From Eledone cirrhosa (Eukaryota): DNA of 64,000 nucleotides. This document shows positions 942 through 33,744 of the stretch, piece by piece. The position numbers and the translations under genes were made by a program. Positions within the stretch are counted from its first letter, which is position 1; each line of letters opens with the position of its first letter. The notes beneath the pieces are model-generated. The model was not told the origin of the DNA. It did not search any database and was given only the letters and a program-made list of their open reading frames with translations. The stretch spans positions 20,398,001 to 20,462,000 of the forward strand of contig OZ024742.1 in assembly GCA_964016885.1 (NCBI GenBank), written 5' to 3'.

Positions 942-1250
942 GTATGTATATATATATATGTATATATATATGTATATATATGTATGTATATATATGTATA
1001 TATATGTATGTATATATATGTATATATATATATATATATATAGTATTAAGGGTACTATTTATGGTTATGTATGCAATAAAACCTTTGATGGTAATATATT
1101 ATATATACACAAACCCTAAATAGTGAGAGATAGTCATTAATTACTATCCTATTACCAGTAAGATAAATAGCTCAATGTAATAACATCAGTTGTTTTACAG
1201 AGCAGTTATATAGAGATTACAGTAATCAAAGTTCAGTTTAAGTCATTTAT

Positions 1251-1299
1251 TTGCTTACAATTGTTTCCTCCAAACCGAGGTTTGGATTCTTCGGAGCAA
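1251..1299 (-). ncRNA. Minimal type I hammerhead ribozyme (family A, 3' pLTR)
   Basis: Reverse complement reads TTGCT-CCGAAGA-a-TCCAAAC/ctcg/GTTTGGA-g-GAAAC-AATT-GTA-AGCAA. Confidence 0.8.
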
Positions 1300-2840
1300 C
1301 TATTTATAACATACTTGACCTCCTTTTCAACCCAAGAGACACATAAAACATATGCGCATATTGATCAACAGTGGGGTGACATTCATCAAATGATATAGCA
1401 TGGCAGTTTACATATAAAGGTTACAGGATAAAAATAAAATAAAATAAAAACAAGAGTGAAAATAAGAGTGAAAATAAAGATAAACATGAAGCGTTGGCAG
1501 TCTATGAAGATAAAGCAAGACGAAAGCTTAGAGTAGTCAGTGTATGAAACAATCTCCCCTGTAGCATGCACGCGTGTCTTATCTATACATGATTAGAGTG
1601 CGTCAGAATGATATTTGCAGGGTCAGGCAGCTGAAGCAGGCAATCGATCTTATTATATAGGCTGAATTATTAAGTCATTTATTGTCATACATCATTATGA
1701 TATACAGTCTCGGATGCGGGGAAACGCCAAAATATCAAAAACCTTCAACATACTATAAACCTTATTGTATCGTAGGCAAGGTCGTACCACTGTCCTTGCT
1801 CACACCACCACTCACATAATCCATGAGACGCAATATATATATAGAGAACACGCGTCTATCGTATAATTCGCAGTGGTTCAGCATATAGTCAAGCTATAAA
1901 CCGTATCCAGTCGGTTCTTAATTAATATATCATGCTGTCCAGATTGCGGAATTGCCTGAATGACTAAGGGGAATTAATGCGTAAGGGGAGGTAACTAGCT
2001 AGTTATCTTAGTTACATTACTATGCTAAACTACATTAATGGTGATTCAAATACGTGCCTATCATGTGAAGTTATAACTAATATCTAGAGTATGTTACCCA
2101 TTTATAGGTTAGAGAGTTGTCCATTAAGAAGTACAAGGGTGTATATATTAGGATGATTACCATCCATTAATTAAGGGGTGTCATATCTGAACGTTCCATA
2201 AGAGGAGTCAGACTCTCAAGTCACTGCTCCATGCAGATGTAATATAACAGTAGGACCTGGTATGGTCCCACTATTATATATGCCACCCGGTAGGCTCCGG
2301 GTCATTGCTTGCCTGCATCTCCAGTAAATCTTCGGTATGGTCCGGAGATCCAATCTCTCATATAAATGCACTAGTCTGGCCATCAAGCAATAGACAACCC
2401 CCGTCTCAAATATAAATCAATTATGTATCACATCTCCAAGCTAGAGTGGAGTCTATTAATAGGTATTAAAGGAGTCCACATCAAGATGATTACGTGCATA
2501 ATTCAATGAACTGATCGCTTACAGTATATAATCACTTAACAATACGATTATCTATCTAATCATCAATCTATCTCTTGGTGGTAATCCATGCACAGGACTA
2601 TGCTATCGCAACCAGTACCGTGTCCCCAATTTATACTAATCTTATATTTGTGCAATGCAGAATAAGTAGTCCACGGTCGAGATATCAGTATTAGAGGTAC
2701 AAGGGGGTATTCCCAGGGTAGGTGGTACTAAAATGCTGTCAGTATTATCTTTAGAGTATAGAGATGGGTGTGGATGTCAGGTGTAAGGTGTGCTACTGAT
2801 GTTAATTGCTAGGGGTGGTGCCGGTTCCAGTCTGACATTA

Positions 2841-5324
2841 TTATATATAGGGTTTAAAATTTTGGAACGAGTGTCGGAAGCGGTGTTGGCAATTTGCGAA
2901 CACTTCTGATTTTTTATTAAGGAGATTATGTTTAGAGAAGATGATAGTATGGGTCTCTAGTAGACAGAGGTTACAAAATTTATCAGGAGGTTTGTACGAT
3001 GTTGCACTACCTACCACTTCCCATTTAAGTGTATATATTTTATTTTTAGTTTTTAGATAGTGTATGTAGCTAGATAGTGAAGTGGAGTTGGCTAGACTGT
3101 GTTTTTTGAAAGAGTGGAGGTGCGAATTGTATCTAGTTTTGAAGCAGTTAGAAGTGCAGCGTATGTAGGTCTCAGAAGAGCTGTTAGTTGTAACTGTACA
3201 TGAGTATATGATATCCTTGGTTAAGCATTTTTTATCTAAAGGGCAGGTTCTACTTGATCTACAGTTACAATTACTCTGGGTGCTAGTCTGCCGGTTACTA
3301 TGCTGTGTAGAAGTTTGGAGGTTAGCTATAGGGTTATGGTTATGCGGGTTGTGGTACGCAGCGTTAATGTTTCCACTAGTGCTATTACTATTATTTCCAT
3401 TGATATTACGGTTATTTGTTATAATGTTACTTTGACTGTTATTTTGAATGTTATTTTGAAGGTTTATCGACCGTTGTGATTTAGTTTGTTGGAAGTAAGA
3501 ATTAATTTTTCTTTTATTTGTACTAGCTATGTGGTATGCTAAGTTAGGCGTAGTAGAGTATGAGATCTTAATAGTGTTTTTGTTTAAAAGGCCGTGGTAC
3601 CTGTGGCCGGATGGGAAGTGTTTATCTAGTAGTGAGAAGAAAGCCCTAGGAAGGTTGGTAGAGACGTTTAAATTGAAGGGAGGGTTGAAAAATGTATTAT
3701 TTCTTCTTCTATTTCTGTTTTTTATGTCTGGTGATTTGTTTCCTTTAATGTTCCTATGGTCATTTCTGTGGTGCGGGTTACTCTTGTTGTTACAATCCCT
3801 ATTTGTGTGTGTGCAGTTGCTATTCCTATTATTAAATTTTCCCATGGACATGTTGTGTGAAATGATGTTGTAGCTATGTGTTTTTGTAGGTAGGAACTCT
3901 ATCCCTGTATTATGGCCTGATCTAGCTAATGCCTGATTATAATACTGCGAGTTATTGTTAAATGTGTTTATGTCATAGGATAGATTAGAGATTCTATTAG
4001 ATACTCCCTTAGAGATAGAGTTCAATATAGATTTAGGGTGGTTAGACTTGGTATCTACGTAGATGAGTTTTTCATTAGGTTTGTGGAAAGGTGCATATAT
4101 CATTGAGTCTAAGTAGAGTGTGGCGTCTAGGAAGTTGACGTTTTTGGTGTTTTTGTCCATGGTAATACTAAGGTTAAAGTTTTTGAATGTTTTGTGCAAT
4201 AGTTTTCTAGTCCTTTCTATATTGAATTTTTTATAGTCTATAAGTAGAAGTGCATCGTCGCGATACAAACCACCGCTGAGGTACGGAAGTTCCCTGTGGA
4301 TTAGGTTAAGTAAGTATAGGCCAACCAAATCAGTGACCTGCGCCGAGTCACTAGACCCCATAGTAATGTCGAAGTTGTTTTGCGTATCCTTGCGGGTCCA
4401 TAATTGGTCCTCAAAGGTGATTATTGTTTTACGGGCCGCAAGTATGACATCAATCTGGGGTCTAGTCAAGTCACTATTGTCCATGGCCATTATAAGTGCC
4501 TTATTTAGTAGGATAGGGGAAATAGAGGTGTAGTAAGAGTTGATATCAAATTGAATAAATTTTTTATCCTTGTTATCTATGATATTTTTGAACCATTCAA
4601 TCACTTCACCCGTATTTCCCCATTGCTTGAGGTAAATCTTGTGTTTAATCTGTGGGATGATTTTGTCTAGGATTATTTTACTGATAATGCCAATGTCAGA
4701 CCTGGAGGGGCAGATTAGTCTAATCGAGGGGTTGCTAATGAAGTCTACCTTATGGTCCTTCAGAGAGAATCTAGGGGGGTTTGGGGTGTAAGGTTGTGTA
4801 TGTCTCTGGAGCCCTAGTTTGGATACTATATTATAGCCTTCCATATTAATATCTTCTAAGTTTTTCATAGTGGTTTTCTTGTAGCTTTTATGTAGTTCAT
4901 TATATATAAACTTTCTATACGTATTATAATCTAGGCTGTATATGTTATTAGTTTTGTCAGCATGTACAAAAATGTTACTACTAGTTTTGAAGTCATTAAT
5001 AGAGGTGCTAAGTTTGTTTAAGAAGGTGTTGTTTTTATTATGGTGTTTTTTGTATTTAATGTTTTTAACTAGTTTAATTAGGTCGTTTTCGAAGAGGTTT
5101 AGTAGTGTGTTATGAGGGAGGCTTCTAAATGTTTTAAAGCCGAAGGAGTCAAATTTGTTGGTGTTATTATCCTTGCCAGATTTGTTTCTATCATAATGGA
5201 ATGTCCTCCATCTCACTCTATTGATAAAGGAGTTTACACTGTTGATCAACAACTTTTCATATGTATTTTTGGTTGGTAAAGGTATGTTCTTGGTTGACAT
5301 AGGGAGTTGGTCTTTGATCAGCAT
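2841..5324 (-). CDS. PLE reverse transcriptase with C-terminal GIY-YIG endonuclease (827 aa, uninterrupted)
   Basis: Motifs STKNIPLP, ADKT, LKDHK, FIQFDINSYY, MGSSDSAQ, GLYRDD, VNFLD; linker CNCRSSRTCP; endonuclease IIY..YIR..R..H, CNLC..E, LN. Confidence 0.95.
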   Translation of the reverse strand: MLIKDQLPMSTKNIPLPTKNTYEKLLINSVNSFINRVRWRTFHYDRNKSGKDNNTNKFDSFGFKTFRSLPHNTLLNLFENDLIKLVKNIKYKKHHNKNNTFLNKLSTSINDFKTSSNIFVHADKTNNIYSLDYNTYRKFIYNELHKSYKKTTMKNLEDINMEGYNIVSKLGLQRHTQPYTPNPPRFSLKDHKVDFISNPSIRLICPSRSDIGIISKIILDKIIPQIKHKIYLKQWGNTGEVIEWFKNIIDNKDKKFIQFDINSYYTSISPILLNKALIMAMDNSDLTRPQIDVILAARKTIITFEDQLWTRKDTQNNFDITMGSSDSAQVTDLVGLYLLNLIHRELPYLSGGLYRDDALLLIDYKKFNIERTRKLLHKTFKNFNLSITMDKNTKNVNFLDATLYLDSMIYAPFHKPNEKLIYVDTKSNHPKSILNSISKGVSNRISNLSYDINTFNNNSQYYNQALARSGHNTGIEFLPTKTHSYNIISHNMSMGKFNNRNSNCTHTNRDCNNKSNPHHRNDHRNIKGNKSPDIKNRNRRRNNTFFNPPFNLNVSTNLPRAFFSLLDKHFPSGHRYHGLLNKNTIKISYSTTPNLAYHIASTNKRKINSYFQQTKSQRSINLQNNIQNNSQSNIITNNRNINGNNSNSTSGNINAAYHNPHNHNPIANLQTSTQHSNRQTSTQSNCNCRSSRTCPLDKKCLTKDIIYSCTVTTNSSSETYIRCTSNCFKTRYNSHLHSFKKHSLANSTSLSSYIHYLKTKNKIYTLKWEVVGSATSYKPPDKFCNLCLLETHTIIFSKHNLLNKKSEVFANCQHRFRHSFQNFKPYI

Positions 5325-5579
5325 GCTGGTAATTTATGGTATATCAGCTCAACAAAATGGAGCAGTTATTAGTATTAAGGGTACTATTTATGGTTATGTA
5401 TGCAATAAAACCTTTGATGGTAATATATTATATATACACAAACCCTAAATAGTGAGAGATAGTCATTAATTACTATCCTATTACCAGTAAGATAAATAGC
5501 TCAATGTAATAACATCAGTTGTTTTACAGAGCAGTTATATAAAGATTACAGTAATCAAAGTTCAGTTTAAGTCATTTAT

Positions 5580-5628
5580 TTGCTTACAATTGTTTCCTCC
5601 AAACCGAGGTTTGGATTCTTCGGAGCAA
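5580..5628 (-). ncRNA. Minimal type I hammerhead ribozyme (family A, 5' pLTR)
   Basis: Same sequence as 1251-1299. Confidence 0.8.
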
Positions 5629-6076
5629 CTATTTATAACATAATTTTGGCGTTTCCCCGCATCCGAGACTGTATATCATACAGATGTATGACAATAAATG
5701 ACTTAATAATTCAGCCTATATAATAAGATCGATTGCCTGCTTCAGCTGCCTGACCCTGCAAATATCATTCTGACGCACTCTAATCATGTATAGATAAGAC
5801 ACGCGTGCATGCTACAGGGGAGATTGTTTCATACACTGACTACTCTAAGCTTTCGTCTTGCTTTATCTTCATAGACTGCCAACGCTTCATGTTTATCTTT
5901 ATTTTCACTCTTATTTTCACTCTTGTTTTTATTTTATTTTATTTTTATTCTGTAACCTTTATATGTAAACTGCCATGCTATATCATTTGATGAATGTCAC
6001 CCCACTGTTGATCAATATGCGCATATGTTTTATGTGTCTCTTGGGTTGAAAAGGAGGTCAAGTATGTTATAAATAG

Positions 6077-6125
6077 TTGCTCCGAAGAATCCAAACCTCG
6101 GTTTGGAGGAAACAATTGTAAGCAA
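6077..6125 (+). ncRNA. Minimal type I hammerhead ribozyme (family A, inverted arm)
   Basis: ttgct ccgaaga atccaaacctcggtttggag gaaac aatt gta agcaa; stem I TTGCT/AGCAA; palindromic stem III. Confidence 0.8.
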
Positions 6126-6164
6126 ATAAATGACTTAAACTGAACTTTGATTACTGTAATCTCT

Positions 6165-7798
<1,634 letters not shown>

Positions 7799-8071
7799 CA
7801 ACTTGCTGCTACCAAGATGAAAACTACTATGAAATCCCACACTGAATTTTATACTTGAATTTTCAAATCTCAAAATTTAACTCTTCTTATTATTAATTTT
7901 CTTAATATTAATCAACATTTGAAAAGATGGCTTTTGCAGACCCATCGAAACCGGTCATTTTTTTATACCCTTTATTATTTCCTTACCTTATAAAACTATA
8001 TGTTTTTTTCACAAAAAAGTATTCTGTCTCTTATATATTCCATGTGCCATTACCAACCTCAATTTTCTCTC
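7799..8071 (+). mobile_element. PLE 3'-terminal fragment
   Basis: Unique island of ~270 bp between TA tracts, carrying a hammerhead motif. Confidence 0.65.
7914..7961 (+). ncRNA. Minimal hammerhead ribozyme, U3-A8 core variant
   Basis: aacat TTGAAAA GATGG-loop-CCATC GAAAC CG GTC atttt. Confidence 0.72.
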
Positions 8072-8246: not shown

Positions 8247-10761
8247 AGAGGGTGTTAAAGTTTGCTTGAAGCATTGTGAAATGTGTAAAATACGTATTTA
8301 AGAAAGCCACAACAATGCAGAGGGAAATCTCGAGGTTGGAAGTGAAAGATAGATAGGAAAAACAGGTGAAAGTGAAAATTGAGAGAGACAAAGATGAAAA
8401 CAAAACAAAGGTAGAAGGGTTACCGTAGTAGAGATTTAATCCCAATATTTCGGGCTCACCCCATCAACGGGGGAAAGTTCCAAAAGGGGGGGGGGGAACA
8501 GGCCAAGCGGAGAAAGTTGTGATGTCGTTAAGACAGGAATGCCGTTATGGGGAGAAAATTATTTAAAATTTAAACGAGGGAAAGAATGCGCGTGCGCGTG
8601 ATAGGCTGTGGCAAAAGCTACTGACCAAATGGGTTAAATCAAGAGGGTGCGCTAGCGTGTGAAAGCCGTAAGATATGTGTGTGTAAATATATATGTGTGT
8701 GTAACTGTGTGTGTATAAGTGTAAGTGTGTATATGTGTGAGTGTGTGTGTGTGTGTGAAATATAGTGGGCTGTAGAAGCTGGAAATCAAAGGGTGTGAAA
8801 GGTGGTAGGTTGTAAAACATGTGTGCGTGTATAAATATAGATGTGTGTGTGTAAGCGTATGGGTATACATGTGTGTGTAACTGTGTGTGTATATGTGTGA
8901 GTGCGTTTGTGTGTGAAAGATAGTGGGCTGTAGAAGCTGGAAATCAAAGGGTGTGAAAGGTGGTAGGTTGTAAAACATGTGTGCGTGTATAAATATAGAT
9001 GTGTGTGTGTATGCGTATGGGTATGCATATACATGCGTGTGTGTGAAGATAGCACGCCGTAGGCTGTGAATGGTCACTATGGTTAAGTTAGCCATGTCAG
9101 CTCATTTCTCTCAGTCCGGTTGTTAAGTGGGGGTCTGAGGTTCTTAATAACAAGTGCTTCCTTTATCCTTAAGGATCCGATGCTGCGTTCAGTCGCTAGG
9201 ACTGTGACCAAGGGTCTACCCTGTGGGTTTCCGCATTTAAGGATGTGTTTACGGAAGGAAGATGCGTTGGTGTTGATATGTTCCTTGATACGAACATGTA
9301 GGGGTCGGATGGTGCTACCTATGTAAAACTTGTTACATTTATCGCATTGAATCTTATATACGACATGGGTGCGTAGGCAATCTGCCCCCCGTATCGGGCA
9401 GTTGCTGAGGGAACACGTCCCATCTGACTCGTCGGGTTTGTTGGAGAGGCATCTTCGCAGCGAAGGTCCTGTGTGGGCCAAATGTATATCAAGTCCCTCC
9501 GTCCGTATGGCCCTGCGGATGGCGTTTGTGGTATATTCACTCAGGTGGGGGATTTTAAAGAAGCACCTGCTATTATTTAATTTTCTAGTGGGTGTCTGTC
9601 TATTGGGTCTGGGGTCTCTAATTCCGTTAATCAGTCGCTTGGGATAACCATTAAATCTGAGTAGATTACGGAATTGCGTGGTATGGGTGAGACCACCCAT
9701 CGGGTCGCTGCATCTGTTAGTGATCCGTGTCAGTTCATTTAGGACATAGCCTCTCTTAGCGTTGTTGGGGAGGGCTGAGTTATAATGCACAAATAAGTCC
9801 TTGCACGCTGCTTTGCGGTAGAAGGTGGTGTTTATGTCTCCTTCTTCCGAGATGTTGATACGGAAGTCGAGGAGGGCGATCCTTAAGGATAAAGGAAGCA
9901 CTTGTTATTAAGAACCTCAGACCCCCACTTAACAACCAGGCTGAGAGAAATGAGCTGACATGGCTAACTTAACCATAGTGACCATTCACAGCCTACAGCC
10001 TGCTATCTTCACACACACGCACGTATATGCATACCCATACGCATACACACACACATCTATATTTATACACGCACACATGTTTTACAACCTACCACCTTTC
10101 ACACCCTTTGATTTCCAGCCTCTACAGCCCACTATCTTTCACACACAAACGCACTCACACATATACACACACAGTTACACACACATGTATACCCATACGC
10201 TTACACACACACATCTATATTTATACACGCACACATGTTTTACAACCTACCACCTTTCACACCCTTTGATTTCCAGCTTCTACAGCCCACTATATTTCAC
10301 ACACACACACACACTCACACATATACACACTTACACTTATACACACACAGTTACACACACATATATATTTACACACACATATCTTACGGCTTTCACACGC
10401 TAGCGCACCCTCTTGATTTAACCCATTTGGTCAGTAGCTTTTGCCACAGCCTATCACGCGCACGCGCATTCTTTCCCTCGTTTAAATTTTAAATAATTTT
10501 CTCCCCATAACGGCATTCCTGTCTTAACGACATCACAACTTTCTCCGCTTGGCCTGTCCCCCCCCCCCTTTTGGAACTTTCCCCGTTGATGGACGTGAGC
10601 CCGAAATATTGGGATTAAATCTCTACTACGGTAACCCTTCTACCTTTGTTTTGTTTTCATCTTTGTCTCTCTCAATTTTCACTTTCACCTGTTTTTCCTA
10701 TCTATCTTTCACTTCCTACCTCGAGATTTCCCTCTGCATTGTTGTGGCTTTCTTAAATACG

Positions 10762-12173: not shown

Positions 12174-12540
12174 AGGAAAACTCTGATATAACACCTGCAA
12201 CCCTGATGGTATCCAATGATGTTGACTTGTTCTTCTTTTTGGTAAATATCATCTTGGTTAAGAGAGTGGGACTGGCTTTGTGCAGTGCCTTTGCTCACTA
12301 TAAAAGCTTCACGGCACAGGCATTGCTTTATATCTGGAGGTCTCTCTGCACTTGTCGTCACATGGTACCATAGGCCCAGCACTATGTGTCAATAATTGTC
12401 ACAAGTGTAGTGTTTGTACCAGAGTTTTCAAGTCGCTGGCTGGACTAAAACGTCACACTTGTTCAGCGCATCGGTGGTAGGGGTTCTCCTACATGGATAT
12501 AAAGTAGTGGCCGTACTCGAAAACGAGTTGGCAGCCACCA
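12174..12540 (+). mobile_element. Non-autonomous RTE-derived element, 5'-truncated copy 1
   Basis: Near-identical to the 3' part of 33745-34353. Has RTE-like ggaaaactctga and the terminal C2H2 remnant. Confidence 0.8.
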
Positions 12541-13392: not shown

Positions 13393-13445
13393 AATAAAAT
13401 AAAGTTAAATAAAAGTCAAATGATTAAAATTTAGCTTCGTTTGTT

Positions 13446-13500
13446 ACTGCTATATATAATTCAGTGACAGCTATCTTTGGCTGTGACCTCTTCAGGCAGT
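13446..13500 (-). ncRNA. Hammerhead ribozyme (family C, 3' end; GAAA mutated to GAAT)
   Basis: Reverse complement of 16745-16799 with two substitutions. Confidence 0.7.
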
Positions 13501-14651
13501 TTGAATTAGTATGGTATAGACAAGTACATATGTTGTTTAGGTGTATGATATTGTCAATACTCTGATATGCCCAGTTCCTTGTTGGGTTGTTAATTCACTG
13601 GGGAACTGGAGTCATATGAATTCAAACAAACGAATTTTCGTGTCACAGGTCCCCTTCTCCTCTCATTGGTCAGTTATTAGAACATTCTTCATTCTAAGTG
13701 TTGTTATTGTTGGAGTTAGCTTAAAAATTGATAAAATGGTAGAAGGGACAAGGTGTTGAAGGAACAAAATATCAAAAAATGTGTCAAACTTCCCATTGTT
13801 CAGTTCTTAGAGCATTCCTCAGTCAGAAGTCTATAGAATTCTTTCTGGGGTGAGGCTCCCTGTAGTGTTTTTGCCTGCTATTGTTCAGTACATTTGACCT
13901 CCACCATTATTTTGGTACTGTTGTTGTTGTAGTGGTCAGCTTATATCTTGCTGCTGCTAACAATTTAGAAGTATCCAGTTTGTTTGTGTTTTCTCTTCCT
14001 CCCACCCGCCACCATCGTAGTGGTGGTGGGGGGGGGGGGGGGTTCTTTCATGTATATGAAGAAATATAAGGCAATAAATGAAGAAAACAGAAAATAAATA
14101 AATAATATAATAAAATAAAATAATTAATATAATTTGTGTAATTTGAAAATAAATAAATAAATTGAGAATAAAGAATAAAGAGTAAATGAGAGATTGGTGA
14201 AAAGGTAATGATAATGTATATGGAGAAGTGAGAAATAATGTAGGATAAAGTGTGTGTGTGTGTGCTATAACCAATCTCAAGGTCAGAATATGTTGGATAG
14301 ATTGGTATGATACAAGATGTTAAGATGAGATATTCAATGTGTTTGTGTTATAATATATCTCAACTTCAAATAAATATAAGGTGATACAGTGAAGAGGGCA
14401 GAAAACAAATAACAAATTAATAAAGAGAAATCAAGATTTAAGATTGGAACTTTAAAGTCAGAAATCTGGTAAATTAAAAGTGTTTGTGTTATAGATGTTG
14501 GCCAGATTATTATGGCTGTGTCCGATTCTATCTCTAGGCTATCATGGTGTCTGCTCCGCCTGGGTTGTTCCCTATGGCTTGAGGGGAGTTCACAACCTAG
14601 GGTGTTGTAATTGCCCATATAGCTTGAGGGAGGTCTGGCCGAGAGGTGTTT

Positions 14652-16505
14652 TCATGTTCTGTAGAAGTCCCTATAGCTTGAGGGGAGTTCACATCTTCTT
14701 GTGTTGCTACTGTCCATATATTTTGAGAAAGGTCCCGGCTCTAAGGTGTCTGCATTCCCGAAGAAGTCGGTTCTGAGGTTTATCAGGCCGCTTCCACCTC
14801 TTAGTATCTCGAGGGTCTCGTTCAGGCATAGTTTGCATATGCAAGATCCCCCTTTATCGGGTGGTACTTTCCTGATTATGTACCATGCCAGAGAGTATGG
14901 GGTCCTGTCCAGCTTAAGCTTCCAGATCAGGTCGGAGAGAGCTGTGCTTTTCCTTTTGGCCTCCTTCTTGAATGAATGGCGATGGTTGTACCAGCGGTCC
15001 TTAAAGCTCGTTGATGTGGCTCCTATGTAGAGGTGTTCGGAGTTGGGGGTTTTAACCCTACAACCGTACACTATGTTCTTCTTGAGACATTCATTACCAA
15101 GGGGGCATGATTCGGGGTTTCTACAGTTGCAGAGGGTGGTCGGCCTCTGCGTGCCTAGATTAGGGTTCTCATTATGTGTTACATGTTGGTCCTCCCCCAT
15201 GCTCGGTGGGGGGGTCCTTGGGTCTGTTTGTGTTTCTTGGGTGGGCTCTGGGTCCCCCCTTCCCTCCTTTCACATGGTTCTGCTGAGTGTTTGTATTGCC
15301 ATCTTCTGGTTGTGTGTGGTTTTTAAGCCTACTTCTGTTGATGCTAGCTATGTGTTGGGCCAAATTTCTCGTGGTGGAATACGAAAGCTTCACAGTGTGT
15401 CTGTTGAAGATCCTGTGGTATCTGTGGTCCCTCGGGAAGCATTTGTCAGGTGCTCCAAAGAATAATCGGGCCAAGCTTTTCTTTAGGGCCGCTGAGTAGG
15501 ATGGGTTGTACCACGTGATTTGTCGGTGTCTCCTCCTATATGTGTGGGTTGGGGGCTTCGTGATTTGTTGGAGATTTGTTGGTTTGCTGGTGGTTTCCGC
15601 ACTGATGCTTCCCTTTTGGGCTCTATACTTTTTGTTATCTTCACGGCCCGGATTTGTGGGGTGGTTGTTGTCTGCCCCGGGAGATCCATCGTGGGGTGGT
15701 CGCTCGTTTCCTCCCCCCCCACGTGTCCTGCGGTTGGGGTTGTCCGTCCTGGGGTAGTTAGCATCACGCCTGAGACTGCTACTCATATTGTGCTCCATCT
15801 CGTGGTCAAGCGCACCAGTCCCCACCGCCCGTGTGGTGGTGTCTGGTACATGGTGCCTATTTGATTCTGCTCTGCCTGTATTGTTAGGGTTCGCCCTCCC
15901 GCCTCTGGCAACGCGGTTGTGGGTGTCTGTTGGGCTATCCACCTCTCGGCTTTTCGGAATATATGTTATATTTTGTCCATGTGCTGCCTTCTTTAGAGCT
16001 GCGTTGTAATATTCCGCGTGGTTGTTGAATATTTCCTTACTTGCGGCGTGGATGATGCTCACCTCCTCTCGGGTTAGGTCCGTATTGGACATCGCTAAAA
16101 ATAGGGCCTTATTAAATACTATGGGTGAGATTGAGGAGTAGTAGCTTGCGATGTCCAGTTGTATAAAGCTGGTCCTACTTTTCTCATGCAGTATTTTGAA
16201 CCATTCTATTACTTCTCTCGTGCATGACCATTGCTGTAATTTGGTTTTCTTCCGAAGCTTGGGCAAAATCCTATCCAGTATTCTTTTACTGACGATCCCT
16301 AGGTCAGATCTGGAGGGGGCTATTAGTCTGACAGGGAGGTCGGACTCAAAGTTTGACTTGTGGTCTTTAAGGGTAATCCGCGGCTCCCTTGTTGGTATGG
16401 GGCCGTCCTGTCCTCTATGCCGATTCTGGATATAATCCTGTAAGCTGTGGCATTGATCTCATCCAGGGTAAATCCAGGTGTTTTTTTGTAGCACTTCCTC
16501 AGTTC
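14652..16505 (-). pseudogene. Disrupted PLE RT-GIY-YIG ORF lacking the catalytic YxDD region
   Basis: FIQLDIASYYSSI..IIHAA is joined directly to SKEIFNNHAEYY (~16040). Frameshifts present. CNCRNPESCP, IVY..YIG and CKLC are retained. Confidence 0.9.
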
Positions 16506-16744
16506 CCATTTTATCAATTTTTAAGCTAACTCCAACAATAACAACACTTAGAATGAAGAATGTTCTAATAACTGACCAATGAGAGGAGAAGGGGACCTGT
16601 GACACGAAAATTCGTTTGTTTGAATTCATATGACTCCAGTTCCCCAGTGAATTAACAACCCAACAAGGAACTGGGCATATCAGAGTATTGACAATATCAT
16701 ACACCTAAACAACATATGTACTTGTCTATACCATACTAATTCAA

Positions 16745-16799
16745 ACTGCCTGAAGAGGTCACAGCCAAAGATGGCTGTCACTGAAATATATATAGCAGT
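16745..16799 (+). ncRNA. Type I hammerhead ribozyme, canonical core (family C, inverted arm)
   Basis: ACTGC CTGAAGA ggtc ACAGCCA aaga TGGCTGT cact GAAA TATAT ATA GCAGT. Confidence 0.88.
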
Positions 16800-16947
16800 A
16801 ATAAACGAAGCTAAATTTTAATCATTTGACTTTTATTTAACTTTATTTTACGCTACTCCGGAGTAACCAAACCAACCTGCGCACTTCGTCGAGTGCTCCA
16901 GCCTGCATACTGAGGTGTTGGTATACAACCAACATAAACTCAAAATC

Positions 16948-17731: not shown

Positions 17732-17782
17732 AAATATTAAACAAATAATGAATAAACAATTCCTTATATTAAACAAAAAAAG

Positions 17783-17937
17783 TTCATTATTTAACGATCG
17801 TTTCTAGGATATATATGTGTTAGAATTGGTATGCATATTCAACAGATCTATGTACAAAATTATACAAAATTATACAAATTATCAAGATTAAATATACATA
17901 CCAAACACATATATACGCCGTCTTCAGAAATAATGAA
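17783..17937 (-). ncRNA. Hammerhead ribozyme with extended stem II (D1 inverted arm)
   Basis: Reverse complement of 25558-25712. Confidence 0.8.
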
Positions 17938-19180
17938 GTATATTTATTGATAATAACAACAATTCAAAATTTCAGTTCAAAATTGACCAATGAAAACACA
18001 AAGGGTTAAATGCAGTTAGGTGTGTGTATATACATGTAAAACCCTTACACATATTTTACAAAAATGTATGTATAATTTGTATACGCATACTAAAAGGATG
18101 GATGCAAATACAAAATTTCAAGGTTAATGTCTCTGTAAGCTTACAATGCGCAGATAAGATGCGCATTGATACTTATGGAGTCAAGTATATAAATATATTT
18201 CTACATACTCACACATATCAGTACAATCACACATACACGCGCGTATATGCATAAATATACACATAACCACGAACATACAAACACACACACAACCCCCACT
18301 CACATTTATATATGTGGATATAAAATCATAAGCACATGGATATTAATTCACTCACATAAAACACTGGCACACACATTTTTAGATCAAGATACGGAAATTA
18401 GGTGGGAGGGGGGGGGAGGGGTCAGTATTCAACTGTCTGAGCAAACTGCCTAATATAAATGTATCTATAAATTAAGAAAAATAAAAAAATAAAACAATAA
18501 AATATAATAAATATAATATAATATACATACACATACAGATATATACACATACATACATGTACACGCACATAGAAATATTTACACATACACACATACGCAC
18601 ATACAAATACAGTCATACACACACATACACCTACACGAACATACACATACACATATATAAAGATATATATATATACACACACACACACGCAACACATACA
18701 CACATACACATATATATAAAAAATAAATAATAAAGATATATACATATATATATATACACATACATATATATATATACATATATACATATACATACACATA
18801 CATCTAAATATACATACACATACATACACACATACATGTACATACATGTACATACATATACATACATCGATATACATATATATATATATACATATACACA
18901 CACATAGACATATAGATACATACACACACAACTTACATACACACATACATATATACATGTATATTCATACATAGAATTAGATATATAATCATACATACAT
19001 ATGCACTTACTTATACTCATATATATAAATACATACGCATCCATATATGCGTATATACATAAAAAACCCCTACAACCTCACCTAACTCAGACATACAAAT
19101 AAAAATAATAATAAAAAGGCATATGTATATACATACACACACGCATTAATAGAGATATATATATACACACATACATACAC

Positions 19181-19237
<57 letters not shown>

Positions 19238-19345
19238 TACACTCATACGTATATATATATATATATATATACACATAGATATCCACACACTCATACCACC
19301 ATAAATACACATACAAACACCCATATATACATATATATACACACG

Positions 19346-19377
<32 letters not shown>

Positions 19378-19500
19378 TAAAAAACAGACATGCACATATA
19401 TATATATTTTTTTACACTTATATATACACATATTATATACACATACACAATCTCACTTATACACACATACACATAAGTTATATTATAATAATAAAGAATA

Positions 19501-19543
<43 letters not shown>

Positions 19544-19633
19544 CATACATACATACATATACATACATACATATAAACATATACATACATAAATACACAC
19601 ATACGAATATATACATATATTCACACATAGACA

Positions 19634-19679
<46 letters not shown>

Positions 19680-20369
19680 CACACATACATATACACAGAC
19701 ACATATACACACTCACATATATATATATGTGTGTGTGCGTGCACACACACACATATATACACACACACACACATATACACATAAACACATACATATGCAT
19801 ACATGCACACACACGCACATATATCACATAGATACGAAGATAAACATATAAATAGAGAGACATACATATATATACAACACACATACACACACATACATAC
19901 ACACGCATATACATATACATATATATATACACATATATATATTCCTATATATACATGCATACACATATATACACATATATACACATACATACACATATAC
20001 GTACACACATTCACATACACATACATATATAATGCATATATACACATATATACATACATATACACACTCATATATACACACGCAATCTTACATTCATATT
20101 TGCATGCGCATATATGTATTTTTATATTTAGATATAAATACCCAAACCTATATAGACACCTACCTACATATATATTCATACATAGACGCTTACAAATACA
20201 GATGATAATAGTATGGGGGAAAGGGGGGGTTTGGAGAAGGGGATCAAAGTAAATATATGTTTCAAGAAACATAAAATATTTTCCGTATCTTTATCCAATG
20301 TATGTTCTTACATATTTTCAGTGTTAGGAAATACAGCAAACAAGAACTAAGGCAAAATCTATGCATCTC

Positions 20370-22101
20370 TAAAAATATTAGGTGTAAATCTTCTGCTTCT
20401 TTCCTACAATTTGATATAGATAATTACTATTCTTCTATATCACCTATACTCCTGAACAAAGCATTGATATTTGCTAAAAATAGATCTAACTTAACTTTGG
20501 ATGACATTAACATTATTACACATGCTAGACTAACACTTATTGAATTTCAGAATGAATACTGGACCAGAAACACATACAGTAATCTTTTTGATATTACTAT
20601 GGGTTCAAGCGATTCCGCCCAAATTACTGATCTTGTGGGCCTCTTTCTCCTTTTCAACATAAATGCCTCTTTTCCCCACCTCAAAGGTGGTTTATATCGT
20701 GATGACTGTCTTCTTCTTTCTAACAACCTTAGCCTTTCAGAAATCGAAAAAAACAAAAAACATATTCGAACTTTCTTTAAAGACTATTATAATCTTAATA
20801 TTACTTTTGAAAAAACAAGTAAAGTAGTAAATTTCCTAGATATAACTTTAGATTTAGCTACGGGTATCTACCAACCTTACCATAAACCTAACCAAAACTT
20901 ACATTACATACACTCACAATCTAATCACCCTAAATCTATCCTTAAAAACCTTGCATATAATATATCACTTAGAATTTCTAACCTTTCTTCTAACCAAGAT
21001 GTATTTGATAAAAATGCGACCTTCTATAACGAAGCTCTAGATAGAAGTGGCCACAAAAATAGATTAGAGTATATACCTTCTACTAAGAATACTGAAAGCA
21101 TACAACATAATATTACCAACAAACACCAAATGAAAAATACACACCTAAATGCCACCCACACTATACCCCAAAATACTAAATCTTCTAATATAAAGTATAG
21201 TAACTCTCAAAAAACTACTCATCATACAACTATAATAAATATTAATAATAAAACTCCTAATAAAAAGGATAAAACACCTAAATCTACAAATATAACTAAA
21301 AATAGTTGTGGTGAGATCATTAACATTAATCCTCCTAGTAAAAATCACGATACAACCTATAAAAATAATAAAAATAATAAACAACATAGAAACCGTAATA
21401 GACGGGTTACTTGGTATAATGCTCCTTTTAATTTACAAGTTAAGGATAATATTGCTAAAAAATTTTTTTATATCCTTGAGAAAAACTTCCCGCCAAACCA
21501 CAAATACCATCAAATCTTAAATAGGTCTACGGTTAAATTCTCATACTCTACAACAAATAACATAAAACAAAATATAAGTGCATATAATGCATATAAATGT
21601 AAGAAAACCATAAGTATACCACCAGTACATCAAATTAACCATAATATCTCCTCAAATACAGAATTAACGAAAGGATGTAACTGTAGAAACAAAGCAAACT
21701 GCCCATTAAAAAGGAATTGTCTTGTTAACAACATAGTCTATAAATGTAATGTTAAAACTAAAGATTCTATTTGCTCATATATAGGAGCTACCTCTAACAA
21801 TTTTAAGACAAGGTTTAATACCCACAAGCATAGTTTTAAAAATGCCGCACTGGCTAATACAACATCTCTAGCAGAAAAAATCAATAGTTATAAAAATAAG
21901 AATATAAAATATGATTTGACCTGGAGTGTGCTCAAAAGAGCCACCCCTTATCAAAATAATAGAAATGAATGTAGATTATGTTCCCAAGAACTATTTGAAA
22001 TAATGAAGTCTAAGGATATCTTATTAAATAAACGACAGGAATTAATTATATCGTGTAATCATAAACTAAAAAAAACATTTAAATATTATAAACCTAATTA
22101 A
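20370..22101 (+). CDS. 5'-truncated PLE RT-GIY-YIG ORF (open frame, no native start)
   Basis: FLQFDIDNYY, MGSSDSAQ, GLYRDD, VNFLD, CNCRNKANCP, IVY..YIG, CRLC..E. The listed ATG at 20302 comes from the inverted arm. Confidence 0.9.
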
Positions 22102-22639
22102 TAACATTATTTTAGAAATTAATTTAATTTAAATGTTAGTTAACCTATAATTTTAATTTAATTAATATTTTATTACAGATGAGAATATAAAATATTATGT
22201 AATCATAAATTGTGAAAAACCTTTAAATATTACTAATATATACTTAGTAATTTAATTTATAGATTAATTTTAATTTATTTAAACCTTTTATTATAATTTT
22301 TTTATTATAATTCTTTTACAGATAAAATATAACAAAATAATATCGTGTATCCAATGACAGAGAAATAATTTTTAGTATTATAGACCTAATTAATATACAT
22401 TTTAGAAATATATTTATTATTTGGTTTTAGTTTTAATCAACCTAAAAATTTTTAATTTTAATTTGCTTAAAATTAGTATCCTTATACAGACGAATTGCAG
22501 AATGTCATGTAATCATAGAATGGGATGTGTTTTGGATATATACCTAGTTAATATATTCTATGCAATTTTTTGAAAAAGATATGTATATGTATATGTGTAT
22601 GTGTATGTGTGTGTATGTATGTATATGTGTATGTATGTA

Positions 22640-22680
<41 letters not shown>

Positions 22681-23807: not shown

Positions 23808-23857
<50 letters not shown>

Positions 23858-23947
23858 TGTCTATGTGTGAATATATGTATATATTCGTATGTGTGTATTT
23901 ATGTATGTATATGTTTATATGTATGTATGTATATGTATGTATGTATG

Positions 23948-23983
<36 letters not shown>

Positions 23984-24111
23984 TATATTATTCTTTATTA
24001 TTATAATATAACTTATGTGTATGTGTGTATAAGTGAGATTGTGTATGTGTATATAATATGTGTATATATAAGTGTAAAAAAATATATATATATGTGCATG
24101 TCTGTTTTTTA

Positions 24112-24143
<32 letters not shown>

Positions 24144-24275
24144 CGTGTGTATATATATGTATATATGGGTGTTTGTATGTGTATTTATGGTGGTATGAGT
24201 GTGTGGATATCTATGTGTATATATATATATATATATATACGTATGAGTGTATGTGTGTGTATATATATATATATA

Positions 24276-24308
<33 letters not shown>

Positions 24309-27384: not shown

Positions 27385-27479
27385 ATAACGAAGGAAATGT
27401 GGTAAGGAACCAGGTGGACCATAACGCACCAAAGTACTCAATACTTGAGGTAGTAGAGTGGGTAATAGGAACCAGTAAG

Positions 27480-27573
27480 ACCCCGACAGCTGAGCTCAAG
27501 CCGTTTCGACGGCTAATTCTGGACTAAATGAAAATTTATCCTGGTATTTAAATAGCTGATCTTCTCAAGGGGT
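27480..27573 (-). ncRNA. Type I hammerhead ribozyme (family E, 3' copy)
   Basis: Reverse complement of 32713-32806 (one C>T giving a stem II change). Confidence 0.8.
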
Positions 27574-28698
27574 AATTCCATATATGGTCAAAGTGATTGT
27601 CAAAAATCAGTAGTAATTCTGTGGTTGCAAATTAGTAGGGGAGATGGTGGCTAAACCTGCCAGTAGGAGAAAGAGGGGAGGGGGTGGAGTAGCCCCAATC
27701 AAGCGTTTGTAGTGCCAGCTACAGCTGGGCATGAGGTCAAAGAAGATACAGGGGAGGGGGAGGGGGAGGAAGTCGGAACCCTAGGTAGAACAATGGGAGG
27801 TAGAAATATATAGGAAAGAAAAAATACTAAGAGTGAAGAAAAGCAAATAAGTGTAAAGAAAAACAAATGAGTGTAAAGAAAAAAGTAAAGTAAATTAAAT
27901 TCTACGACCTAGGTCTCTAGCTATTGTTAGTCTAGAATAAATAAATAAATAAAGAAAGAAAGAAGTAAAGAAAGAAATAAAGAAATAACGAAATAAGTAA
28001 AAGAACTAGGTGGGACGGAATAGGCGAGGACCCTTTTAAGAGGTATGAGTACGTAAATGATACGGTGACGGGTCAACAAAAGGGGCCAAAATACTAAAGA
28101 GACTACCAAGAAATAAACAATAAAGGTTTCCATCCCGGGCACAATTCCAGCAACCACCCAGTGCAGCAAAGTGAACTAATACGAGATAATAATTCTGAGT
28201 CCCGAGAAAAATATATACTAATGCTAACTCTAAAAGATCTAAAACAAGCTACATGAAAGTTCGTACGAAGTAAAGGTAGAATACGAAGAATAAATTCAGA
28301 ATCCACCCCGCCCAAAAGAAAAGCGAAGAAAGAAATACTGAAACGAAAAAATAAGGCATAAGTGCCACTAAGAAATATAGAGGGCACAGAGAATAGTGGG
28401 AGCGGTCGGAAAAAGGGGACAAGTATCCGGGGTCTAAACCAACTGCTATAAAGGGCGGAGTCCGCCAAATCTATCCTAGACTAGGGGAGGGGGTGGGGGT
28501 ACTAAGGCTACAAGGGGCCAAAGGGCAGCCTCGGGTGGGCGAGAAAAGACGCCGACAAAGGAGAAGAGCTGGGGTAGAAGGACTAAGGAGAGAGGGGGGA
28601 AGGAAGGAAATAAAGGAAGCGATAAAAGAATACAAAGAAGATCTTACGTCTCCCTTGGCAAGCAGGGGTTACCCATTGCAAAATCGGCAAGTGGGGTG

Positions 28699-30871
28699 TT
28701 ATAGCCCTAGTCTACCCCCCCCCCCCCCCGGGTCATTATGGGGTTTGAGGGCGAGGTAAGTCCTACGCAATCTATGTTTACATGCAGTAACCAGTTCATC
28801 TTTCTTGTTTAGGAGTTGGTCCGTCGAAAACAGCATTTGTAAAGTTTCCTCCGAGCATAAATTGCACGGACGGCGTCCTCCCGTGTAAGAATTGGCTCTG
28901 GACAGTAATCTCCAAGTGAGATCATAGGTGATGTTGTTGTCCTTGAGGTCCCATATGTGGCCCGAAAGTGTAGTGGCGTGACGCCGGGCCGGGTTTCGGA
29001 AGGTATGTCTATGTTGGTATAGCTGGGTCTTGAAGTCACATGCGGTAAGTCCTATATAGGCTTTGTTGGAGGTATCCGTCCTCACGTTGCACTGGTAGAT
29101 CACATTACGGTCTCTGCATCTATTGTCGAGTGGGCAAATAGATCTATCCGGGCAGTTACACCTCCTGGTCGGTTCTCCACTGCTATTTAGGTTATTTCTG
29201 CCATCGGGGTTGAGTTTTTTGTTGTTAGAGGAGACGATGTTTTGTGCGAAGTTTGGTGTAGTGCTGTAAGAGAGTTTGATGGTATTTTTGTTAATTATGT
29301 TGTGGTAGCGGTGTTGTAATGGGAAGTGTTTTTCAATGAGCCTAAAGAATAGTTTCCCGATGGGAGTTGTCACCTCTGTGTTGTGGGGAGGATTGAACCA
29401 TGTTACATTGCGTGAGCGGCGGTGTCTCCTGCTGGTTCCGCTAATGGGAGCTGGACAGTAGGATATTTCCTCCCGGAAACCACTCCGCTTGAGGGCCTGG
29501 TTGTAATAAGGCGCATGTTCATCGAATATCCGCTCATTAGCTGACAAACGGGATATGCGGAGGGAGATGTTTTTGACCAGGTTGTTTGTGATGTTCCTAG
29601 GATGGTTTGATCGGCGGTGGATGTAGTGCAGATTGTCATTAGGTTTCCTTATGGGTAGTACAGGTCGTTTTCGAGATCGAGGGTCACGTCCAGGAAGTTT
29701 CCTCTGGTCAGGGACGTTTGTAGGGTTATTTTAAATCCCCAGTCGCGGAAGAATCTGATTAATTGTTTCCGGACCCGATCTGTACTACTGGGGTTGTACC
29801 CTTTAAGGGTAAGGAGCCCATCATCACGGTACAATCCACCACCGAATGCAGGAAACATATCAGTGAGTTTGGCTATTAGGAATAATCCTATAAGATCTGT
29901 GACCTCCGCCGAATCCGTGGCGCCCATGCTGACGTCGAAGGGTGAGTCGGGAGCTCTTTTTATCCATTTAGAGTCGTCAAAGAGTAAGACTGTCTTCCTG
30001 GCGTGGAGGATGATTTTTCTTTCCTGGTCGGTGATGGGCACAAGTGTTTCGGCGAAGTCCAAGGCGGCAGTAAGTAGCGGTAAGGTGATTGAAGCATAGT
30101 AGCTCTCTATGTCGAACTGTATGAATTTAGTTTTTCGTTTATCCTCCATATTGCTGAACCAGGAGATTACTTCCTGGGTGTTGATCCATAGGCTAAGTCG
30201 GGTGTGTTGCTTGACTTTTGGTATCACGCGGTCTAGGATTTTTTTGCTGATTCTCCCTATGTCGGACTTCGTTGGGTTAATAACCTGATAGAGGGTTTAC
30301 GGTCAAAATCGGATTTATGGTCCTTCAGTGTGAAGTATGGTGTCCGTGGGTCTAGAGGTTCCGTGCGGTCGGCGACCCCGAGGCTGGAGGTGATTTGTTG
30401 TCCATCTCGATTTATGTCCTCGATGCAAGAGTGGTTGGCCTTTTTATAGGTGGAGTTTAGGCTGCTCCTGATCAGTGTGTGGTATCTGTCAGGGTTGACA
30501 AAGTATAGGTTCCCAGTTTTATCCGAATGCACCATGATGTCATTTGTGTTATCATACTCTGTTAGGTTGCTACGGAGTTTTTGTAGGAATCGGTTGTGTC
30601 TGGGTTTAAATTTAATGTTCTTGACCAGTTGGAAGAGGTCATTCTCGAAGGGTGCGAGCAAGGGGTTCAGGGGCGGAGATTTGTAGGTAATAAATCCGAA
30701 TCTCTCCTTGGTGCCGAAGTCTTGGTTGTCGCAATATCTGTCATAGAAAAAAGTTCTCCATCTAAGTCTTTTCGCAAATAGATCGATTTTTTGCGTGAGC
30801 ATCCGAAGGTAAAGTTTTTTCGGTGGGATTGGGATGTTCTTGGTAGAGAAGTCAATGTTGTGTTTTCGCAT
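28699..30871 (-). pseudogene. Full-length PLE RT-GIY-YIG ORF with two apparent 1-nt frameshifts (~30270, ~29648)
   Basis: MRKHNIDFSTKNIPIP, SDKTGN, TLKDHK, FIQFDIESYY, MGATDSAE, GLYRDDGL, CNCPDRSICP, VIY..YIG, CNLC. The indels could be read errors. Confidence 0.9.
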
Positions 30872-31056
30872 GGTGCGGGTGAAATGAATTGGGCTTAGCG
30901 GAAAAGTCTGGATACGGCGTGGTAGGGTCGGAAAGTGCTCTACTACGGGGGTAGGAGCTAGATAACGAAGGAAATGTGGTAAGGAACCAGGTGGACCATA
31001 ACGCACCAAAGTACTCAATACTTGAGGTAGTAGAGTGGGTAATAGGAACCAGTAAG

Positions 31057-31150
31057 ACCCCGACAGCTGAGCTCAAGCCGTTTCGACGGCTAATTCTGGA
31101 CTAAATGAAAATTTATCCTGGTATTTAAATAGCCGATCTTCTCAAGGGGT
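31057..31150 (-). ncRNA. Type I hammerhead ribozyme (family E, 5' copy)
   Basis: Reverse complement of 32713-32806. Confidence 0.82.
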
Positions 31151-32712
31151 AATTCCATATATGGTCAAAGTGATTGTCAAAAATCAGTAGTAATTCTGTG
31201 GTTGCAAATTAGTAGGGGAGATGGTGGCTAAACCTGCCAGTAGGAGAAAGAGGGGAGGGGGTGGAGTAGCCCCAATCAAGCGTTTGTAGTGCCAGCTACA
31301 GCTGGGCATGAGGTCAAAGAAGATACAGGGGAGGGGGAGGGGGAGGAAGTCGGAACGGTAGGTAGAACAATGGGAGGTAGAAATATATAGGAAAGAAAAA
31401 ATACTGAGAGTGAAGAAAAGCAAATAAGTGTAAAGAAAAACAAATGAGTGTAAAGAAAAAAGTAAAGTAAATTAAATTCTACGACCTAGGTCTCTAGCTA
31501 TTGTTAGTCTAGAATAAATAAATAAATAAAGAAAGAAAGAAGTAAAGAAAGAAATAAAGAAATAACGAAATAAGTAAAAGAACTAGGTGGGACGGAATAG
31601 GCGAGGACCCTTTTAAGAGGTATGAGTACGTAAATGATACGGTGACGGGTCAACAAAAGGGGCCAAAATACTAAAGAGACTACCAAGAAATAAACAATAA
31701 AGGTTTCCATCCCGGGCACAATTCCAGCAACCACCCAGTGCAGCAAAGTGAACTAATACGAGATAATAATTCTGAGTCCCGAGAAAAATATATACTAATG
31801 CTAACTCTAAAAGATCTAAAACAAGCTACATGAAAGTTCGTACGAAGTAAAGGTAGAATACGGAAGAATAAATTCAGAATCCACCCCGCCCAAAAGAAAA
31901 GCGAAGAAAGAAATACTGAAACGAAAAAATAAGGCATAAGTGCCACTAAGAAATATAGAGGGCACAGAGAATAGTGGGAGCGGTCGGAAAAAGGGGACAA
32001 GTATCCGGGGTCTAAACCAACTGCTATAAAGGGCGGAGTCCGCCAAATCTATCCTAGACTAGGGGAGGGGGTGGGGGTACTAAGGCTACAAGGGGCCAAA
32101 GGGCAGCCTCGGGTGGGCGAGAAAAGACGCCGACAAAGGAGAAGAGCTGGGGTAGAAGGACTAAGGAGAGAGGGGGGAAGGAAGGAAATAAAGGAAGCGA
32201 TAAAAGAATACAAAGAAGATCTTACGTCTCCCTTGGCAAGCAGGGGTTACCCATTGCAAAATCGGCAAGTGGGGTGTTATAGCCCTAGTCTACCCCCCCC
32301 CCCCCCCGGGTCATAATTTCTTTATTTCTTTCTTTATTTATTTATTTATTCTAGACTAACAATAGCTAGAGACCTAGGTCGTAGAATTTAATTTACTTTA
32401 CTTTTTTCTTTACACTCATTTGTTTTTCTTTACACTTATTTGCTTTTCTTCACTCTCAGTATTTTTTCTTTCCTATATATTTCTACCCCCCATTGTTCTA
32501 CCTACCGTTCCGACTTCCTACCCCTCCCCCTCCCCGGTATCTTCTTTGACCTCATGCCCAACTGTGGCTGGCACTACAAACGCTTGATTGGGGCTACTCC
32601 ACCCCCTCCCCTCTTTCTCCTACTGGCAGGTTTAGCCACCATCTCCCCTACTAATTTGCAACCACAGAATTACTACTGATTTTTGACAATCACTTTGACC
32701 ATATATGGAATT

Positions 32713-32806
32713 ACCCCTTGAGAAGATCGGCTATTTAAATACCAGGATAAATTTTCATTTAGTCCAGAATTAGCCGTCGAAACGGCTTGAGCTCAGCTGT
32801 CGGGGT
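32713..32806 (+). ncRNA. Type I hammerhead ribozyme, U3-A8 core, full stem III (family E, inverted arm)
   Basis: ACCCC TTGAGAA GAtCGGCTA..TAGCCGTC GAAAC GGCT tgagctc AGCT GTC GGGGT. Confidence 0.82.
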
Positions 32807-32816
32807 CTTACTGGTT

Positions 32817-33744
<928 letters not shown>

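Follow-up and report, generated by a model that had tools for sequence, protein, structure and literature searches.

The 64,000-nucleotide stretch of Eledone cirrhosa DNA analyzed here (NCBI GenBank assembly GCA_964016885.1, contig OZ024742.1, positions 20,398,001 to 20,462,000 of the forward strand; hereafter the window, numbered from its first letter) contains a minus-strand Penelope-like retrotransposon, element A, and a second retrotransposon of this class, element E. Judged by their motifs, A and E are new families of Hydra-type Penelope-like elements (PLEs). In both, the main copy exceeds one unit, crosses a hammerhead ribozyme motif without a scar, and is joined to an inverted arm at the points where the two arms stop. 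This layout probably arose by two-arm target-primed reverse transcription of an uncut linear RNA longer than one unit, or through a homology-guided template switch, rather than from a ligated circle. The original prediction, made from the sequence alone, had read the repeats as the trace of circular templates; that they belong to PLEs, that the copy is longer than a unit, that the hammerhead is passed without a scar, and that a circle would explain all this remain valid, but the tandem itself is the standard arrangement of PLE pseudo-long terminal repeats (pLTRs). Textbook PLEs combine a partial tandem, an inverted arm, and a one-sided tail in just this way, and the layout has long been known.

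Repeats in the window were mapped by self-comparison with microsatellites masked, followed by base-by-base checking. The main arm of element A (1041..5642, minus strand, 4602 nt) comprises 1.063 units of 4329 nt, since positions 1041-1313 recur as 5370-5642 at an offset of 4329, and the 273 nt differ at a single position (G at 1213, A at 5542). The upstream pLTR (5370..5642, minus strand, 273 nt) is a 5'-truncated partial copy, the downstream pLTR (1041..1313, minus strand) includes a 170-nt tail (1041-1211) that is missing from the inverted arm, and the non-repeated part of the long 3' untranslated region (UTR) occupies 1314..2840 on the same strand. The 3' end is equivalent to position 5370, a point 46 nt before the ATG at 5324. 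The predicted period of 4329 nt with hammerheads at 1251 and 5580, the figure of 1.06 units, and the continuation of the 3' end into the 5' leader were therefore all correct, with both hammerheads on the minus strand. What had been described as seamless over 1041..6164 is not: positions 5643..6164 (plus strand), overlooked in that description, form an inverted 5'-truncated arm that is the reverse complement of 1212-1733, with 3 substitutions in 522 nt, carries a third hammerhead (H17 at 6120), and meets the main arm head to head at a blunt junction, 5642/5643. The 3' end of the main arm (1041/1042) abuts the (TA)n target with an overlap of 2-3 nt, and that of the inverted arm, 44 nt beyond the cut site, merges with (TA)n. 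The microsatellite target flanks the element at 6165..7802 and 843-1040, and a target-site duplication is unreadable within this (TA)n sequence.

Element E has the same design on a unit of 3577 nt. Its main arm (27385..32314, minus strand, 4930 nt) spans 1.378 units; positions 27385-28736 recur at an offset of 3577 (3578 past a 1-nt indel) with 4 substitutions and 1 indel in about 1350 nt, in agreement with the 3577 nt and 1.38 units proposed earlier. The overshoot was also said to re-enter the end of the open reading frame (ORF), which is barely the case: its end point corresponds to 28736, and the protein match to element A ends at 28738. The inverted arm (32315..32820, plus strand) extends to about 20 nt beyond the cut site, so that the two arms differ by a tail of about 80 nt. 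A simple-repeat length difference is seen at the arm junction. Within a C-rich tract of the inverted arm (32490-32570, equivalent to 27720-27798) there are 5 private substitutions in 79 nt (clustering p 0.003); the direct repeat, by comparison, has 3 events over about 2700 nt (Fisher p 0.003). A second template, conversion, or local hypermutation could each account for them, and because all five fall within 79 nt, local conversion or hypermutation explains them equally well; the differences among the E copies do not appear to separate a circle from a second template.

Hammerheads were searched for with purpose-made descriptors, and a strict descriptor was controlled by block-wise dinucleotide shuffling. 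Within the window the strict scan returned 5 matches, whereas none of 20 shuffled versions yielded any, and Rfam at its gathering threshold gave no match in the window. Three putative motif copies are found in element A and three in element E, two of the latter passing the strict scan, and all six are identical across the cut site. In element A, the upstream motif (5580..5628, minus strand, sense; H17 at 5585) and the downstream one (1251..1299, minus strand, sense; H17 at 1256, with the 3' end 214 nt farther downstream) are of the minimal type I, with a palindromic 8-nt stem III in the upstream motif. Their core carries U4C in all three copies, so this change was present in the template. By contrast, the core reads ctga in 26 of the 26 Hydra rows of File S2 of Craig et al. 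(PMC8557442), and U4C is described as considerably lowering hammerhead activity in vitro while being tolerated by a viroid in vivo (PMC3088659). In their local fold context, helices I and III of the A motif have probabilities of ≤0.10, and an alternative fold is predicted; in the predicted minimum-energy dimer, the two motifs co-fold through an intermolecular helix III. With U4C, low helix probabilities, and a stem III partner 4.3 kb away, the ribozyme of element A looks weak. The missing G10.1-C11.1 pair was also considered as a sign of a dead ribozyme and was dropped, because many Hydra rows in File S2 likewise do without it. As a side observation, a helix is predicted to enclose the element A hammerhead; the main arm stops within a few bases of its 5' strand (5634-5642), and the start site of the inverted arm falls at its 3' strand (5535-5545). 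This coincidence may reflect a natural RNA 5' end or chance.

The hammerheads of element E are of another kind, and the earlier description of minimal motifs with a palindromic stem III fits A only. The upstream motif of E (31056..31150, minus strand; H17 at 31062) combines a U3-A8 core, a variant already described (PMC4209133), with an extendable 5-bp stem I, a long stem II, and a 6-bp helix III. A second copy (H17 at 27485) has its stem II broken by one substitution, and a third lies on the plus strand (H17 at 32801). In a 136-nt fragment, the hammerhead is the minimum-energy monomer fold, with a stability like that of shuffled sequences (z 0.11); in context, the helix probabilities are 0.32-0.36 for the best copy and ≤0.15 for the other two. 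For minimal hammerheads in pLTRs, low cleavage was measured even for dimers, as reported in Cervera and de la Pena 2014 (PMC4209133).

Elements A and E are two of six PLE insertions (A, B, C, D, D2, and E), from five families, that together take up about 31 of the first 41 kb of the window. All six consist of two arms whose 3' ends point outward into (TA)n and whose truncated 5' ends are joined, with a tail on one arm of 170 nt (A), about 39 nt (B), about 100 nt (C), 135 nt (D and D2), or about 80 nt (E). D and D2, members of one family, have the same two end points with the arms swapped. In A, C, D, D2, and E, a hammerhead cut site precedes the arm ends by 20-214 nt, the C and D motifs coming from relaxed patterns. 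Every arm end with a known family continuation (8 of 8) overlaps the TA target by at least 2 nt; with a chance of 0.225 per site and 7 independent sites, this would be expected at about 3e-5. Full length is reached by A and E alone, and each of them overshoots one unit.

The remaining insertions differ in preservation. Elements D (17738-25891) and D2 (34544-40822) are Hydra-type and 5'-truncated, with 97% identical ORFs and an intact YIG; their inverted arms measure 2.6 kb and 0.5 kb, respectively, and the 135-nt tail belongs to the main arm of D but to the inverted arm of D2. The D hammerhead (H17 at 25702) has a palindromic stem III and a stem II region of about 120 nt. Element C (13396-16947) is also Hydra-type, 5'-truncated, and frameshifted, and profile positions of about 293-445, containing RT motifs B and C, are missing; its hammerhead core is intact in the inverted arm (H17 at 16794) and has one change in the main arm. 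Element B (8248-10756) is a PLE of another clade, with two Cys between GIY and YIG, a Pfam GIY-YIG match at E 1e-4, 880-nt inverted arms, a canonical 39-nt tail, and a degenerate hammerhead-like motif near its 3' end, read by eye. The hammerheads of C and D and the degenerate one of B fail the strict descriptor.

Element A contains one open frame (5333-2841 from stop to stop, minus strand, 830 codons, ATG at 5324; ORF 2841..5326) whose product, P0001, has a reverse transcriptase (RT) of the telomerase-like kind (D263 and YRDD at 357-360), a CxCx5C linker, and, at the C terminus, an endonuclease of the GIY-YIG type, in that order. Among 7998 candidates scored, 550 relatives were found at E 1e-20 or better; residue counts given here refer to the best 120 of these 550, which are 31-40% identical to P0001 and whose few informative names are bivalve and cephalopod. 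The closest among the matches listed is about 39% identical over the full length, and the RT aspartates are unchanged in 120 of 120. A Pfam search of P0001 gave no family, and PDB sequence searches gave chance matches or none. A fold model was built from alignment A1, which comprises P0001 and 93 of the 120 listed homologues (94 sequences; outside it are P0002, P0030, P0042, P0058, P0065, P0075, and P0101-P0121). The model reached a predicted local distance difference test (pLDDT) score of 86.9, with telomerases at PDB ranks 1, 2, and 5 and two low-confidence Asn-rich linkers at 486-534 and 642-684; a single-sequence fold (pLDDT 32.9) was useless.

The endonuclease of P0001 reads IIY-x12-YIR, with R734, H738, E793, and N806 aligned in register with the homologues, and is 41% identical to the domain of element C, which itself scores as Pfam GIY-YIG at E 0.0011, below the curated cut-off. 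The Gly of YIG is replaced by Arg (codon at 3161); Gly stands there in 118 of the 120 homologues, with 2 gaps. In the Poseidon element PAc, mutation of the YIG Gly is reported to abolish DNA cleavage (PMC11167929), and the motif suggests that the position in element A is equivalent. With this Gly replaced, the endonuclease domain of A is present yet predicted to be inactive. P0001 has a single Cys (712) between GIY and YIG, where 101 of the 120 homologues have Ala. In element E, the ORF (ATG at 30871) is spread over three frames by two frameshifts, and the catalytic endonuclease Arg, found in 117 of the 120 homologues, is Gln (codon at 29025). Judged from their sequences, neither the A copy, with YIR in place of YIG, nor the E copy, with two frameshifts and the catalytic Arg lost, is autonomous as it stands. 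The prediction of autonomous, protein-coding elements was thus not confirmed for these copies, although A does keep one open frame. These endonuclease changes and frameshifts may post-date insertion, given a repeat divergence of 0.4-0.6%.

The assignment to the PLE class and the Hydra clade is based on the sequence motifs, the telomerase-like fold model, the lack of CCHH, the (TA)n target, and the hammerhead near the 3' end. As in endonuclease-bearing (EN+) PLEs, element A joins a telomerase-related RT and a GIY-YIG endonuclease in one ORF, carries a type I hammerhead motif in its pLTR, and has the partial tandem of pLTRs, the inverted 5'-truncated copy, and the one-sided tail. The Hydra clade, as defined by Craig et al. 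2021 (PMC8557442), inserts into (TA)n and has hammerheads near the 3' end. Element A likewise has a (TA)n insertion site, a C-terminal endonuclease without CCHH, RW[KR] and DKT motifs (DKT replacing DKG) with GxKF/Y not conserved, a CxCx5C linker, and CxxC and CxH around the catalytic E and N. In P0001 the motifs read RWR, DKT, and GFKT (listed homologues: K 81 / R 36 and T 105 / S 15 of 120), and the cysteines are C689-C691-C697 for CxCx5C, C787-C790 for the CxxC before the catalytic Glu, and C815-H817 for the CxH after Asn. In length the new families differ: Hydra elements are typically under 3 kb, a trait rather than a strict definition, and the units here are 4329 and 3577 nt. A profile of P0001-type proteins matches C, D, D2, and E strongly and B weakly. 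An assignment of element A to Naiad was rejected, its endonuclease being C-terminal rather than N-terminal and hammerheads being present.

How could such a layout be formed? The scar-free crossing of the hammerhead, the starts downstream of the ribozyme, and the overshoot together exclude a cut linear monomer copied to its end; the candidates left are an uncut RNA longer than one unit, a homology-guided switch between RNAs, and a circle. In the mechanism we favor, the endonuclease of an intact family member would nick both (TA)n strands, as expected from what is known of the family, and each nicked 3' end would prime at one of two fixed internal RNA sites, 44 and 214 nt past the cut site in element A, with the help of TA pairing over 2-6 nt; the segment separating the two start sites would become the one-sided tail. 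We infer this two-site priming from the arm ends; an in vitro precedent is a Poseidon PLE, for which Frangieh et al. 2024 (PMC11167929) describe that both strands are cut and extended and that reverse transcription starts at two internal sites. Both complementary DNAs (cDNAs), as the sequence shows, cross the hammerhead without a scar and are joined where each stops. The additional 0.06 unit (A) or 0.38 unit (E) most likely derives from a linear RNA longer than one unit, read through from tandem sources, or from a homology-guided switch to a second RNA, and after insertion A and E would likely have decayed through the endonuclease motif changes and frameshifts. Internal initiation on unprocessed RNA explains why the 3' end runs into the 5' leader.

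The strongest competitor is a circular template. According to this proposal, made by Cervera and de la Pena 2014 (PMC4209133) for ligated circles and more-than-unit reverse transcription and repeated in a 2019 review (PMC6765202), the hammerheads would release a monomer of 4329 nt (A) or 3577 nt (E) that is ligated, and the RT would prime internally just past the junction, travel around the circle once, and displace its own cDNA, yielding 1.06 or 1.38 units. We regard it as possible but doubtful for these elements. It accommodates the intact cut site in all six hammerhead copies, the fact that neither full-length arm ends at this site, and the near-identity of the repeats (1 difference in 273 nt for A; 5 in about 1350 nt for E), as a single template would give. 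Since the arms start 20-214 nt past the cut, a cut linear monomer could not have been the template, and if cutting at that distance upstream of the RT starts were efficient, only a re-ligated circle could be copied. The A motifs co-fold into a dimer helix III, the E motif with its 6-bp helix III folds as a monomer, and small hammerhead circles are reported from animals (PMC7229834).

Other evidence points away from circles. Naiad and most Chlamys elements are described as having no canonical hammerhead, yet build the same tandem, inverted, and tailed structures (PMC8557442). In the Poseidon experiments, hammerhead mutants left insertion unchanged and no RNA-seq reads ended at the cut (PMC11167929). 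Element A carries U4C, and its dimer partners would sit 4.3 kb apart; the E fold is no more stable than shuffled sequences, and its helices are only partly populated in context even in the best copy. Uncut linear RNA or template switching is favored because other clades build the layout with no need of a ribozyme, insertion in vitro can do without cleavage, and the A ribozyme looks weak. The repeats are not a circular-RNA signature, since PLEs that lack hammerheads make the same layout and internal initiation on unprocessed RNA accounts for the run of the 3' end into the leader. Literature searches, covering titles and the starts of abstracts with subscription papers mostly outside their scope, found no full-length circular PLE RNA. 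That Hydra-type PLEs, with E as the best case, transpose via unit-length coding circular RNAs of 3577 and 4329 nt, more than one round regenerating the pLTR, is a tentative idea that we consider less likely than not.

Several observations nevertheless weigh against a linear template. Masked self-comparison of the window revealed no complete tandem of A or E that could have been the source, and both full-length arms overshoot (2 of 2), that of E by 1250 nt upstream of the cut and beyond a plausible pLTR promoter start. Schostak 2008 sees no obvious mechanism regenerating pLTRs. The Poseidon protein is reported to have needed sequence downstream of the RT start (PMC11167929); by analogy, a linear A transcript ending 46 nt before the ATG might not serve as its own template, a difficulty that a circle would solve. 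The templates in that report were short linear RNAs of an element from another clade, and circles too would leave no reads ending at the cut site. Finally, the tolerance of U4C by a viroid in vivo (PMC3088659) and the monomer fold of the E hammerhead in the 136-nt fragment weigh on the same side.

Two further explanations were weighed. A second 5'-truncated copy could have entered an existing one precisely at its 5' end, the endonuclease also cutting the DNA of the element itself. PAc is reported to cut a substrate built from its own ORF-pLTR junction, and insertion into its own pLTR is considered possible there (PMC11167929). In both A and E, the upstream part runs on into the leader and ORF in perfect register; TA remnants, duplications, and deletions are absent, and the near-zero divergence of the repeats points to one event; such homing is very improbable here. 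An assembly artefact, in which repeats around microsatellites were collapsed or duplicated, is conceivable in a window so rich in repeats and microsatellites, and PLE structures are said to trouble assemblies (PMC8557442), but it can practically be set aside, as the copies differ at private positions and six insertions from five families have a common anatomy, in which the end sites are specific to the family and are swapped between D and D2.

Further repeats occur around the PLEs. Four 95-96% identical copies of another repeat lie in (TA)n (12174-12535, 26156-26559, 33750-34348, and 41084-41680), on the same strand and with the same 3' end but varying 5' truncation; three of them adjoin D or D2 arms across a TA tract, and descriptor scans found no hammerhead in this repeat. 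In the TA tract to the left of element A, 50-nt inverted repeats (615-664 / 804-853) frame a 240-nt element that we take to resemble a miniature inverted-repeat transposable element. Short frames at 49415-50144 look like the 3' end of a long interspersed nuclear element RT. Self-comparison also revealed minisatellite-type tandem arrays at 44068-45618 and 56983-57860.

New here are the longer-than-usual Hydra-type families with variant hammerheads; the layout itself has already been described. The six two-armed insertions, in which paired RT start sites are specific to the family and short TA pairing occurs where synthesis begins, are of modest value as a natural data set, and the start-site pairs extend the two-site model from the Poseidon element to Hydra-type families. 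If circles were true after all, they would settle how pLTRs are regenerated, a question posed in 2008 and answered in 2014 by hypothesis, and would reveal a eukaryotic, protein-coding retrotransposon whose circular intermediate is made by a ribozyme. The element E family would be a better test case for this than A.

Among known systems, the closest are the Hydra-clade families such as Hydra-1_Obim and Penelope-13_HM as presented in PMC8557442, with which A shares the endonuclease type, motifs, target, and placement of the type I hammerhead; Penelope-13_HM is listed with an inverted 5'-truncated copy, as in A. The families in File S1 of that paper measure 1080-3045 nt, whereas A and E, at 4.3 kb and 3.6 kb, have long 3' UTRs and variant hammerhead cores, with two Asn-rich linkers in P0001. 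Penelope of Drosophila virilis and Pen2a_Av of Adineta vaga likewise show a 5'-truncated copy before the full copy, an adjacent inverted pLTR, and an optional tail (PMC2377424, PMC3846280), but they belong to a different clade and have tails of 31-37 nt, compared with about 39-170 nt in the window; in D. virilis, up to 30% of the Penelope copies have a variably truncated upstream copy (Schostak 2008).

Poseidon PAc of Anolis carolinensis resembles A and E in that, as reported in PMC11167929, two internal RT starts past the hammerhead cut define the tail and both strands are extended. In PAc, the hammerhead overlaps the ORF start, and RT starts inside the ORF, at a site reported as non-homologous to the target; the starts of A and E, by contrast, fall within the leader, ahead of the ATG, and share 2-6 nt with the TA target. 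Animal non-LTR retrozymes, described in PMC7229834, also have type I hammerheads in head-to-tail repeats and are related to PLE pLTRs, and a 2026 preprint derives retrozymes from these pLTRs (bioRxiv 10.64898/2026.07.22.740005). Retrozymes are non-coding tandem units of 170-400 nt with canonical, efficient ribozymes and demonstrated circles (PMC7229834). A and E do not belong among them, being 10-20 times longer, coding, not multimeric, and equipped with variant ribozymes.

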